Assembly (NCBI GenBank): GCA_964426185.1
Contig: CAYRPF010000087.1
Coordinates: 1 to 6,088 of the forward strand
Direction: 5' to 3'
Origin: an uncultured archaeon
GTDB taxonomy: Archaea; Asgardarchaeota; Lokiarchaeia; Sigyniarchaeales; Promethearchaeaceae
DNA: 6,088 bases
The notes under the pieces were generated by a model. The model did no database searches, was not told the DNA's origin, and worked only from the letters and a program-made list of their open reading frames with translations. This document shows, one piece after another, positions 2,324 through 5,866 of this stretch. The first letter of the stretch is position 1. Every line of letters begins with the position of its first letter. Made by a program: the position numbers and the translations under genes.

Positions 2324-2355
2324 TAACTTGATCGAATTTAAGGAAGAAATGTTTG

Positions 2356-4044
2356 ATGAGAGATTTTCAAGATACTCCTTGGTGGAAGAAAACTACAGTT
2401 TATCAGATTTATCCCCGTTCTTTTTATGACAGTAATGGTGACGGGATTGGCGATTTGATGGGTATAATCTCGAAACTCGATTACATAAAAGAAACCGGGT
2501 TTGAAACCATCTGGTTTTCTCCGTTCTACGATTCTCCCCAACGCGATTTTGGTTATGATATTCGTGATTATCGAAATGTTGCTCCAGAATACGGAACCCT
2601 GAAGGATGCAGAAGAATTAATTGAGCAAATCCATGTTCGGGACATGAAGATAGTCATGGATATGATTTTGAACCACACCAGCGACGAACACCCTTGGTTT
2701 CTGGAATCCAAAAAAAATCGAGATAATCCTAAAAGAGATTGGTACATATGGCGTGATGGAAAAAAACCGAATGGAAAAGCACCTCCTAACAACTGGATAT
2801 CTCAAATTGGAGGCTCAGGTTGGCACTATGATTCTAAAACGGATCAGTGGTATTGGGCAGCATTTTTACCATTTCAGCCAGATCTAAATTTCCGTAATCC
2901 CGAAGTTCAAGAAGAAATGTTAGATACCATGCGGTTTTGGTTAGATAAAGGAGTTGACGGATTTCGATTGGATATATTGGGTTCACTTTTCGAAGATGCA
3001 GAATTTCGGAATAATCCATTTACCTTCAAACTTTTACCCTCCGAATCCGATCCGGGCATGCTTTTTAGATCGGCCGAAATGACGATAAATCATCCAGATA
3101 CCATTGCATTTACGAAGCGTTTGCGGGCATTAACTGATGAATACTCTCCCGATCGTTTTATGGTAGGAGAAGTATTCGGTTCATACCCAACTATTCGAGA
3201 ATTTTGTGGAACGCCCGATTCTCCAGGAATTCATTCTGTTTTTCAATTTCAAACCTTGGAAACACCATTTTCCTATAAGGGTTTTACCCGATTATTGAAG
3301 GAAAGTGAAAAATGGTTTTCCGAACCATATGTGCCAACTTGGGCCTTTTCAAATCACGATCGCACCCGCAGGATCTCAGTTTTAGGCAATGATATAAGAA
3401 AGGCTAAATTAAACGCATTTTTCCAATTGACGGTGCGTGGGGTTCCTTACATTTATTATGGAGAAGAAATCGGTATGAAACAAGTCGATATACCCTTTTC
3501 AAATGCTCAAGATGGTCTGATATCCAAATTCCAAAAATATCCATCATGGATGTTGAGTTTACTGCAAAAACTTACCACCGGAGCGATTAACCGTGATGGT
3601 TGTCGAACTCCCATGCAGTGGTCTGCCTCCGAAAATGCAGGCTTTACAGCTCCATCAGTGAAACCGTGGTTACCAGTAGATCAACAATATGCTGAAATAA
3701 ATGTAGAAAAAGTCAGACAGGATCCTGATTCTATTTGGCATTTTTATCATCGAATTTTAAAACTAAGAGAAAAAAGACCGGTATTGGCAGCTGGCGCTTT
3801 AGAAATCTTGAAATCAGACACATTACCAAAAAAAATCTTAGGATATAAACGGTTGAAATTATTTGACAGTCACAGCGAAGAAATGTATATCTTTCTGAAT
3901 TTCTCCAATAAGGAGGTGAAATTCTCAAATATATTTGGAAATTTAAATTTATTGGCATCTACAACGATTCATTCCAATCCTCTTAAGGAGAACAAAATTT
4001 TTCTTAGCGGGTGGGAAGGAATAATAACGGAGAAGATCAAATAA
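2356..4044 (+). CDS. GH13 alpha-glucosidase (oligo-1,6-glucosidase/maltase group), cytoplasmic
   Basis: Motifs WWK, YQIYPRSF, DSNGDGIGDL, GYD, NHTSDEHPWF, QPDLN, GVDGFRLD (nucleophile Asp, nt 2971-2973), MVGEV (acid/base Glu, nt 3169-3171), NHD (Asp, nt 3358-3360), YYGEEIGM and RDGCRTPMQW. Start is ATG 2356 or the adjacent TTG 2353. No signal peptide is visible. Confidence 0.93.
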   Translation: MRDFQDTPWWKKTTVYQIYPRSFYDSNGDGIGDLMGIISKLDYIKETGFETIWFSPFYDSPQRDFGYDIRDYRNVAPEYGTLKDAEELIEQIHVRDMKIVMDMILNHTSDEHPWFLESKKNRDNPKRDWYIWRDGKKPNGKAPPNNWISQIGGSGWHYDSKTDQWYWAAFLPFQPDLNFRNPEVQEEMLDTMRFWLDKGVDGFRLDILGSLFEDAEFRNNPFTFKLLPSESDPGMLFRSAEMTINHPDTIAFTKRLRALTDEYSPDRFMVGEVFGSYPTIREFCGTPDSPGIHSVFQFQTLETPFSYKGFTRLLKESEKWFSEPYVPTWAFSNHDRTRRISVLGNDIRKAKLNAFFQLTVRGVPYIYYGEEIGMKQVDIPFSNAQDGLISKFQKYPSWMLSLLQKLTTGAINRDGCRTPMQWSASENAGFTAPSVKPWLPVDQQYAEINVEKVRQDPDSIWHFYHRILKLREKRPVLAAGALEILKSDTLPKKILGYKRLKLFDSHSEEMYIFLNFSNKEVKFSNIFGNLNLLASTTIHSNPLKENKIFLSGWEGIITEKIK

Positions 4045-4075: not shown

Positions 4076-4957
4076 CTATAATTCTTTCTTAATAATTAAG
4101 GAGCCAATGGGCACGTTAAAGTATGCAGCCACAACCTCGCATTTTGCTTTCAGTAGAAAATACAGCGATCCTTTCGGCCGATTTTCAGATTCATGCGAAA
4201 TACCTTCCAGTGACTCGAAATTACCCTGTCCTTTAGCGAGGATCAAATCGGATGAATGAAATGCTTGAGAAAATTCTGGGGAAACTTCCTCAAAAATCAC
4301 TCCAGGACATGCTGAACCTTCAACCACATTACAAATACTAGTGATCCCGATCTCTTCCGCTTCTTTTAGGGTTATATCATTAATTGCCGGCCCACCCCGC
4401 ACTCCATAAAAAATTCTCTTAGCGGGATAGTGTTTCTTCAGATATTCCACAAAGATTTTATCAAAAACTGCTTCACCGCAATTGTCACCGATGATCATGA
4501 TTTGAGAACTTTTTTCCAAATCCGCTTCAAACTCATCTAAAATTTCATCAGGAATATGAAGCTCGTTTATTTTTTCTAAATCTTCCCATAAATCAGAATT
4601 ATACGGAGCACCAAAATCAATAGTATTCCCAATAATCATAAATTTGACCACCAATTGGAGGGGATCTTGACTTTTAGCTAATTGAGCAGTTAATGAAGGA
4701 ATAAGTTTCAGCACACGGTTGTTATCACGTTGTTTTATTTTTCTATAAGGATCAATCTCATGAAGATATTCAGCTAATGTGTCATACACAATTTTCCCGT
4801 AATATGGAAGTTTGGTTTGATTTTCTTTTATTATTTTCTGCATTACGGCGCGTTGAATATCAATAATTGCATGATTTTCCATTTTAGGTTTCAATTTTCT
4901 TGCATTTTTCAAAACTTGGTTCAATAAACACGGAAAACATTCAGCATGGATCTTCAT
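4076..4957 (-). CDS. DUF89/ARMT1-like damage-control metal-dependent phosphatase (PH1575/AF1104-type subfamily)
   Basis: Motifs MKIHAECFPCLLNQ (N-terminal CxxC), DPY-x-x-IK, GNTIDFG, DNCGE, PAINDIT, KGQGNFESL and LKAKC. The family N-terminus matches ATG 4957 (293 aa), not the longer 5032 start in the ORF track. Confidence 0.92.
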   Translation of the reverse strand: MKIHAECFPCLLNQVLKNARKLKPKMENHAIIDIQRAVMQKIIKENQTKLPYYGKIVYDTLAEYLHEIDPYRKIKQRDNNRVLKLIPSLTAQLAKSQDPLQLVVKFMIIGNTIDFGAPYNSDLWEDLEKINELHIPDEILDEFEADLEKSSQIMIIGDNCGEAVFDKIFVEYLKKHYPAKRIFYGVRGGPAINDITLKEAEEIGITSICNVVEGSACPGVIFEEVSPEFSQAFHSSDLILAKGQGNFESLEGISHESENRPKGSLYFLLKAKCEVVAAYFNVPIGSLIIKKEL

Positions 4958-4982
4958 TCTTATTTTTCTTAAATACACTCCC

Positions 4983-5000
4983 GCATAAAAATTACCCTTT
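4983..5000 (-). promoter_or_regulatory. Possible BRE/TATA promoter for the DUF89 gene
   Basis: The minus strand reads AAAGGGTAATTTTTATGC, a purine-rich stretch followed by TTTTTAT about 28-34 nt upstream of ATG 4957. Specificity is weak in AT-rich DNA. Confidence 0.3.
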
Positions 5001-5050
5001 CTTAATTCTGCCTTCACCCATGAAGCTCCCACAATTATAAAAGGAAATTT

Positions 5051-5066
5051 ATAGAGATTTTAAATA
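5051..5066 (+). promoter_or_regulatory. Probable archaeal BRE/TATA promoter of the 231-aa gene (leaderless transcript likely)
   Basis: TTTAAATA at 5059-5066, preceded by purine-rich ATAGAGA, lies 29 to 22 nt upstream of ATG 5088. No Shine-Dalgarno sequence precedes the ATG. Alternative boxes are TTTATA (5048-5053) and TTATAA (5035-5040). Confidence 0.45.
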
Positions 5067-5087: not shown

Positions 5088-5783
5088 ATGAAGACCCAAA
5101 CCCCTCGAAAATTCAGCATAAAAGAAATTCATGCGGCGGGATTGACTTTGGAGCAAGTACGCACTCATAAATTATTAGTGGATAAAAGAAAAAAAGGAAT
5201 GAGTGCTGAAAACATCTCTTATTTAAAATCTCTTGGAATCCCCCCCCAATATACCGGCCCAATCCCTCAACCACGTGTGAAAAAAACACAACTTCCTAAA
5301 CAAAGAAAAGCACACGTTAAAAAGCCAAAACAAGTTACAAAATCGGCGGCAAAACCTGCAGTTAAACCAGTGAAAAAAGCGACTACTAAAACGACAACCA
5401 AGCCTACAACCAAGCCAACCACCAAAGTAACCACGAAACCTAAGGCTAAGGCAAAAACAGAAACTAAGCCAGCACCTAAACCAGTAACCAAAGTTACCAC
5501 GAAACCTAAAGCAAAATCGGAAACCAAACCAGTAAAAGTAGAAGAAAAAAATTCATTTAATAAAATTGAATCAAAATCTCTCGATCCAAAGGTACAAGAA
5601 GCAATCGCCAATATTTTCCAAGATACTCCCCTATTTTCGAAAAAGGCCGATTTACTTGAAGCGATTGAAAAACATACTGCAAAATTAACCGAATTAAAAC
5701 CCGATCAATTATTAAATCGATTGAAGAACGAAAATATAATAAAGTACTCTCGAACAGCCCCTCGAGGATATTCACTCAACTAA
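5088..5783 (+). CDS. Basic three-part protein: divergent ribosomal eL13 (L13e)-like domain, Lys/Thr/Pro/Ala-rich histone H1-like linker, predicted C-terminal winged helix
   Basis: Residues 7-50 (RKFSIKEIHAAGLTLEQVRTHKLLVDKRKKGMSAENISYLKSLG) follow the eL13 core pattern RGFSxxElxxAGlxxxxaRxxgixVDxRRkxxxxENvxxLk without gaps. Residues 61-150 contain 28 Lys, 19 Thr, 13 Pro and only 2 acidic residues. Residues 165-231 show three amphipathic helices followed by a hairpin-like IIKYSRTAPRGYSL. Confidence 0.75.
   Translation: MKTQTPRKFSIKEIHAAGLTLEQVRTHKLLVDKRKKGMSAENISYLKSLGIPPQYTGPIPQPRVKKTQLPKQRKAHVKKPKQVTKSAAKPAVKPVKKATTKTTTKPTTKPTTKVTTKPKAKAKTETKPAPKPVTKVTTKPKAKSETKPVKVEEKNSFNKIESKSLDPKVQEAIANIFQDTPLFSKKADLLEAIEKHTAKLTELKPDQLLNRLKNENIIKYSRTAPRGYSLN
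5379..5438 (+). repeat. Five degenerate in-frame 12-bp tandem repeats encoding xTTK
   Basis: gcgactactaaa / acgacaaccaag / cctacaaccaag / ccaaccaccaaa / gtaaccacgaaa encode ATTK TTTK PTTK PTTK VTTK. Confidence 0.85.
5421..5512 (+). repeat. Intragenic direct repeat with a 66-bp offset
   Basis: accaaagtaaccacgaaacctaaggc (5421-5446) and accaaagttaccacgaaacctaaagc (5487-5512) are 24/26 identical and both encode TKVTTKPKA. The two differences are synonymous. Confidence 0.85.
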
Positions 5784-5816: not shown

Positions 5817-5866
5817 TTTTTTTCTTCCCATTTTTATCCGATTTTTCTTAAAAACCAAATTTTTTT
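5817..5866 (+). terminator. Oligo-T terminator region for the 231-aa gene
   Basis: T7 at 5817-5823, two T5 tracts, and T7 at 5860-5866, all downstream of the stop at 5783. Confidence 0.5.

Follow-up and report, generated by a model that had tools for sequence, protein, structure and literature searches.

The gene at positions 5088 to 5783 of the analysed stretch of DNA (6,088 nt, referred to as the window) encodes a protein that is, judging from its sequence, an eL13 orthologue and the cell's ordinary eL13, ending in a winged-helix domain in place of the HhH domain of its relatives. We favour, at a probability of about one half, the reading that it is a ribosome-bound eL13 with a tethered arm that grips RNA or another nucleic-acid backbone. 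What is new here is the swap of the HhH for the winged helix on eL13; the ribosomal protein itself is known, and this is not a new kind of system. An earlier note on this DNA had described three modules in one chain, and a core, a disordered basic linker and a winged helix were all borne out. The gene, its modules and its flanking signals are located as follows.

5058..5066, forward strand: TATA-box-like element TTTTAAATA, 30 to 22 nt 5' of the ATG
5088..5783, forward strand: eL13-winged-helix gene, 231 aa in three modules, the genome's only detected eL13
5106..5237, forward strand: eL13 core, aa 7-50, from profiles, the structural model and the kept residues F9, S10, E13, D32, N42 and L46
5238..5273, forward strand: conserved Pro-rich extension of the core, aa 51-62, from the alignment and a block pLDDT of 95 for aa 51-60
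5274..5567, forward strand: disordered Lys/Thr/Pro/Ala-rich linker, aa 63-160, from composition and model confidence
5577..5780, forward strand: winged-helix domain, aa 164-231, of the YSRxxPRG(Y/W) family, with conserved K186, K213 and wing residues Y220-S221-R222-P225-R226-G227-Y228
5817..5823, forward strand: oligo-T run T7, a plausible archaeal terminator, with a second T7 at 5860-5866

Orthology and conservation of the eL13 core

The assignment of the N-terminal module to eL13 is upheld by profile and structure searches that agree with each other. NCBIfam NF008914 matched aa 4-48 of the protein (E 5.6e-9) and Pfam L13e (PF01294) matched with an E-value of 1.8e-4, both under their curated cut-offs; that of NF008914 was reached in none of the 41 genomes searched. 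A profile built from the cores of relatives matched solved eL13 chains, the best being the archaeal chain 9e6q_AH (157 aa, E 1e-12), which is outranked by two repeat-rich IcmE rows solely because these sum many sub-threshold repeats. In the full-length AlphaFold model (pTM 0.38), two confident and independent domains at about aa 1-62 and 164-231 are joined by an unstructured stretch, and the core reaches a pLDDT of 96-98 over aa 11-50. Foldseek searches with this model gave weak matches to eL13 chains (probability 0.97-0.99, E about 0.07-0.25), including 8e5t_L with an rmsd of 3.0 over 53 columns and a weak E-value. The eL13-like segment had been delimited at aa 7-50, which stands, but the linker does not start at aa 51 as had been stated: aa 51-62 are conserved and confidently modelled, indicating that they are part of the core.

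With eL13 (PF01294; NF008914; 9E6Q chain AH) the protein shares the core helices, the FS..E and D..RK motifs, a structural match and a single-copy distribution. It differs from ordinary eL13 in its sub-cut-off scores, in the added linker and winged helix, and in the absence of the N-terminal V-x-S-P...R-x-G-x-G segment of typical Asgard eL13. This segment is also missing in the HhH-bearing eL13 of related genera, indicating that the truncation is a trait of the subfamily that is not tied to the swap of the tip. The near-invariant eL13 residues (F-S, E, D, R-K, N, L) are kept except at aa 35, where Lys replaces Arg, and at aa 37, where Gly replaces Ser; the Arg at aa 35 is otherwise 99% conserved and is retained by the closest relatives. 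Loss of the VxSP/RxGxG segment together with Lys35 could weaken rRNA binding.

The genome of origin (92% complete) contains one eL13 match, and no second eL13 was detected in it by profile or tblastn. A single-contig relative (G001) likewise has one match only, and in an order-wide survey eL13 was found in 126 of 154 genomes, with exactly one match in 122 of the 126. Since no other eL13 was matched in its genome and the order as a whole has one copy per genome, we regard it as an orthologue and not a paralogue; given the sole matches in its own genome and in G001, we reject the paralogue reading and with it the idea, put forward in the earlier note, of an eL13 paralogue co-opted as a chromatin protein. 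In a tree of the core (67 columns), the winged-helix forms fall among HhH-bearing eL13 from their own family (SH-aLRT 92).

Exchange of the terminal domain

Collection of 206 eL13 proteins, a sample weighted to one large family, yielded 172 that end in an HhH domain, 13 that end in the winged helix and none with both; among the remaining 21 are truncated sequences, short forms and HhH domains too divergent for the profile. Nearly all of the 120 listed homologues carry an HhH (PF14520), and many of them are named ribosomal protein L13e in their source. HhH tips, in some cases two per protein, were also seen in several further Asgard families, while some eL13 are short. On this sequence evidence, the usual Asgard eL13 consists of a core, a basic linker and a small domain at the C-terminus. 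The statement that archaeal eL13 proteins are typically short and single-domain thus fails for Asgard archaea, where HhH-armed forms prevail.

The Asgard eL13-HhH fusions (PF01294 plus PF14520) follow the same plan of core, Lys-rich linker and small tip, and the cores group together, whereas the tip of the protein described here is a winged helix and its linker is longer and less Lys-rich (median length 104 aa in winged-helix forms versus 67 aa in HhH forms; Lys fraction 0.28 here versus a median of 0.39 in HhH-tipped eL13). The architecture is conserved in relatives, with 13 distinct eL13-winged-helix proteins, whose winged helices form one group in a quick tree (SH-aLRT 90). This fits a single acquisition, and the ancestor of one lineage probably swapped its HhH once for the order-specific winged helix. 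Other relatives, including those of the Ca. L. ossiferum type, have an eL13 without the winged helix.

Two further kinds of tip were noted. A 317-aa eL13 (L028:742-1692 (-), genome G004) ends in two repeats of about 35 aa with a marginal match to Cauli_VI (RNase H1 N-terminal; 22.5 bits versus a cut-off of 21), and a 148-aa eL13 (L045:1210-1653 (-), genome G010) has a short helical end without a Pfam match that looks by eye like a helix-extension-helix.

Residues 51-154, taken as the linker, comprise 28% Lys, 19% Thr and 16% Pro, the net charge of the linker is about +27 to +28, and from about aa 71 to 160 the AlphaFold model has low confidence and no secondary structure. Among winged-helix orthologues the linkers range from 33 to 138 aa and from +2 to +32 in net charge. 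Lys-rich tracts occur in 33 ORFs of the same genome, among them Lys/Ser/Thr-rich tails on proteins identified by eye as RadA-, UvrA- and histone-like (G000:C3:9299-10603, C20:19419-22523, C26:35407-35778, C5:49377-49787). Long acidic C-terminal tails were observed on uS3 (by eye) and eL32 in the spc/S10 cluster (G000:C2:75054-75908, C2:80181-80714).

A genome so prone to Lys-rich tails, and the replacement or absence of terminal domains in several lineages, might suggest that the arm is a largely neutral decoration that arose by domain shuffling. We give this reading little credence: orthologues share 37-73% identity over the winged helix, about the level of the eL13 core or higher, with the linker mostly less conserved, and at least 185 of the 206 collected proteins have retained some terminal domain.

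Fold and conserved surface of the winged helix

The C-terminal domain modelled alone (pLDDT 97) consists of three helices followed by a beta-hairpin wing (helix-helix-helix-strand-strand), confirming the winged-helix topology that had been proposed from sequence. A conservation profile of 129 non-redundant copies revealed conserved polar positions at the start of helix 2 (Ser/Thr-Lys, the Lys being 80% K/R), at the end of helix 3 (Lys, 71%) and in the wing (Y-S-R-x-x-P-R-G-Y/W, the Arg residues 91% and 77%). Exposed positions of helix 3 are often acidic (58%, 43% and 52% D/E), and the eL13-linked copies are near neutral, with a net charge of -4 to +3 and about +1 to +3 for the domain here. The acidic helix 3 and the low net charge argue against reading of the DNA major groove; they would fit either a wing gripping the phosphate backbone or binding to an acidic protein patch.

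No Pfam match was obtained for the winged helix, any single Pfam family accounted for at most 2 of 35 copies of the domain, and no PDB sequence matched. Structural neighbours include PBP2 of Saccharolobus PolB1 (5N41, Z 7.6), the cullin WHB (6.8), the SelB winged helix (6.4) and Z-alpha (5.8), with rmsd values of 2.5-3.9 and identities of 8-15%, none of them above background. We take the PBP2 and cullin matches to be protein-binding winged helices; the SelB domain is an RNA-binding winged helix. In the wing at window positions 5733-5775, we presume that the Pro-aromatic spacing is that of Z-alpha domains, although the Z-alpha profile PF02295 did not match, and the helix-3 positions that are presumably equivalent to the Asn/Tyr pair of Z-alpha are mostly E/N/D here. 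Membership in the Z-alpha family was therefore rejected on the unmatched profile and the absent pair. The nearest folds in the ESM Atlas belong to domains from DNA-mobilisation and primase-like proteins (TM 0.71-0.77), with feature scores below 0.9, and serve as leads only.

These atlas folds, the linker charge and the fact that winged helices and HhH domains are both common DNA-binding folds could be taken to favour the bridge of the earlier note, in which the arm of a ribosome-bound eL13 binds chromosomal DNA or a transcription complex and keeps ribosomes near the nucleoid. Such a bridge appears quite improbable, since the would-be recognition helix is often acidic at its exposed positions, unlike a major-groove reader, the linker varies widely in length and charge, and eL13 belongs to the large subunit and is remote from the path of the mRNA. 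Moreover, the ribosomes of Ca. L. ossiferum are evenly spread through cell body and protrusions (PMC9834061).

The likeness to linker histones H1 and H5 extends to the winged-helix fold class and a disordered Lys/Pro/Ala-rich stretch. In contrast to H1/H5, the domain here is near neutral, C-terminal and preceded by the basic stretch, and it is fused to eL13. Linker_histone (PF00538) matched no copy of the domain at E-values up to 10 in five genomes, nor was it among the families found for 35 copies, and H1 globular domains resembled the winged helix generically (TM 0.42-0.56, E 0.05-0.2), interspersed with CymR, Rio2 and cullin. In H1, the long basic tail follows the globular domain, an order opposite to that of the eL13-winged-helix protein. 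Membership in the H1 family was rejected on the unmatched profile. Since the linker is not Lys-richer than those of HhH forms and Lys-rich tracts occur in 33 ORFs, it provides no evidence for an H1 role either, so that the analogy drawn in the earlier note finds no support, with a structural similarity of TM about 0.5 and a Lys fraction below the median of HhH forms. A role as H1 precursor or chromatin protein is not supported.

A related scenario is that the N-terminally shortened eL13 has left the ribosome and now acts as an H1-like chromatin protein. The lost N-terminal segment and the combination of basic linker and winged helix would suit it, and some archaea and Asgard lineages can do without eL13 (PMC9932298). 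Against this stand the lack of a second eL13 by profile or tblastn, the constraint on core residues, the unmatched Linker_histone profile, a fold likeness that is generic only, the near-neutral charge and the reversed domain order, and we consider a departure from the ribosome very unlikely.

A mobile winged-helix family confined to one order

In a sample of 301 genomes of the phylum, 65 had the winged helix, and all but one marginal match lie within the order; a search of 1.8 billion representatives returned 91 matches, a few of which are spurious repeats. The YSRxxPRG(Y/W) winged helix thus appears from its sequence distribution to be a mobile family confined to the order, and apparently unnamed. 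Its commonest hosts are BBS7/ITFG2-like beta-propellers with one to four copies, and it further occurs on eL13, a cold-shock protein, an M28 peptidase, a longin, an AAA ATPase and membrane proteins. The propeller winged helices (e.g., that of P. syntrophicum QEE15843.1, an 'FG-GAP repeat protein') belong to the same family at 21-39% identity to the eL13 copy; Lokiarchaeia propellers carry one to four tandem copies behind the propeller, whereas the eL13 here carries one.

In all three genomes of the genus to which the genome of origin belongs, the propeller orthologue lacks the winged helix (L177:1441-2592, L178:1438-2547, L179:1105-2604) and the eL13 has it, while related genera carry one to four copies on the propeller. 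The propeller gene of the genome of origin ends near a contig edge, unlike its counterpart in the single-contig genome. A Promethearchaeota cold-shock-domain protein (L141:4001-4552, P0214) matched the family weakly (E 3.6e-4) with an intact motif. Furthermore, in a family of about 300 aa, the winged helix stands at the N-terminus and is joined by a basic linker to a C-terminal domain without a family match (G000:C1:45652-46488; L020:868-1758; P0156, P0194); it occurs in many genomes of the family and is degenerate in the genome of origin.

The unrelated hosts, from propellers, membrane proteins and the peptidase to the longin, ATPase and cold-shock protein, raise the possibility that the winged helix is a portable, protein-binding address tag for one common partner, such as a membrane-associated scaffold, the cytoskeleton or an adaptor-like complex, and positions ribosomes via eL13. 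The near-neutral charge would agree with this, as would the absence of the domain from the propeller, and its presence on eL13, in the genus studied here. Ribosomes of Ca. L. ossiferum sometimes form membrane-associated chains (PMC9834061), and in eukaryotes UFL1 makes contact with eL13 as well as with eL36, eL42 and the L1 stalk, the UFL1 winged helices binding ribosomal proteins including eL13 and not rRNA (PMC10937380). We nevertheless hold this reading to be distinctly unlikely: the domain replaces an HhH, a fold usually tied to nucleic acids, its conserved patch is rich in Arg, Lys and Ser, the propeller loss and eL13 gain amount to a single phylogenetic event in three genomes, and relatives including the Ca. 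L. ossiferum type lack the domain on eL13.

Gene context and expression signals

The 40 nt upstream of the gene are identical in two relatives of the genus, and the position of the TATA-like element would suit a leaderless or short-leader transcript. Genome-wide, 7.4% of genes have a TATA-like match in that same positional interval. A T7 run within 60 nt after the stop follows 23% of ORFs, so that the one at 5817-5823 is ordinary. Both elements named in the earlier note are thus present, the terminator being commonplace, and the gene does stand alone outside a ribosomal operon, though this is not distinctive, as the HhH-type eL13 is likewise a stand-alone gene in both loci examined. Its codon usage lies at the 96th percentile of likeness to 16 ribosomal-protein genes, in a genome where overall bias is weak.

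The stand-alone gene and its two potential RNA-binding ends could also point to a dedicated ribosome assembly or hibernation factor. This proposal is hardly credible for the sole eL13 of a genome: no match to such factor families was obtained, and HhH-type eL13 genes stand alone as well.

Close homologues bear the names Ca. Harpocratesius sp. and Promethearchaeota, and a Harpocratesius contig shows the same order of upstream genes, in agreement with the Asgard origin that had been suggested. The other window genes (3-1220, 1241-2323, 2353-4044, 4076-5032 (-)) encode an M28 peptidase with membrane segments, a CTP-transferase-like membrane protein, a GH13 glycosidase and an ARMT1-like damage-control phosphatase, which are syntenic in the Harpocratesius contig. 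A more distant eL13-winged-helix locus has other neighbour genes; because gene order differs there, the window neighbours were not treated as eL13 partners, and comparison of the neighbourhood with the Harpocratesius contig and this locus revealed no link between them and eL13. In two genomes of another family (L143:1275-2747, L144:2564-4021), an eL13-HhH gene lies two genes downstream of an Arf/Roc/Rag-type small GTPase gene.

A proposed tethered arm on the ribosome

The protein is probably incorporated into ribosomes. In the model that we favour, that of a ribosome-bound eL13 with a nucleic-acid-gripping arm, the N-terminal core would lie close to the L1 stalk on the solvent face of the 50S subunit, as in eukaryotic eL13, and the disordered basic linker would let the small terminal domain reach around the subunit. 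The winged helix would then bind a nucleic-acid backbone without reading sequence, via its wing and the start of helix 2. Its nearest ligand may be RNA on the ribosome surface such as the enlarged expansion segments of Lokiarchaeia, so that the arm would add avidity or steady surface RNA. Supersized ES9 and ES39 have been described in Lokiarchaeia (PMC7594248), and in Entamoeba a species-specific insertion of eL13 binds a species-specific rRNA helix (PMC12368212).

The ligand of the winged helix is the least secure point of this model. Since the winged helix took the place of an HhH, a nucleic acid is the more economical guess, and we lean slightly towards it; the basic or hydroxyl nature of the conserved surface-type residues suggests the same. 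A protein ligand appears somewhat unlikely, although hosts without an obvious RNA role, namely membrane proteins, a peptidase, a longin and propellers, carry the same winged helix, and the best structural matches (PBP2 and cullin) are presumably protein-binding while the eL13-linked copies are near neutral.

In the literature searched, which did not extend to subscription journals, we found no account of extra domains attached to Asgard eL13, nor any of the winged helix described here. eL13 is not mentioned in a study of Asgard ribosomal clusters (PMC10833476) or in a 2026 Asgard chromatin preprint, and the supplements of PMC9834061 and PMC7015854 yielded no eL13 expression figures.

The eL13-winged-helix protein represents a natural swap in which two unrelated folds occupy the same position on the same ribosomal protein, so that their comparison can show the purpose of the arm. 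It also brings to light a winged-helix family that is restricted to the order, apparently has no name and turns up again on propeller and longin proteins of eukaryote-like type. The finding is worth a biochemical test. A broader conjecture, unlikely as we see it, is that the winged helix is a Lokiarchaeia-specific portable tag for one shared ligand which, on eL13, would tie ribosomes to the site of the BBS-like propellers, longins and membrane proteins, or to the nucleoid. If this were true, interchangeable eL13 tips would be a general Asgard means of positioning ribosomes.
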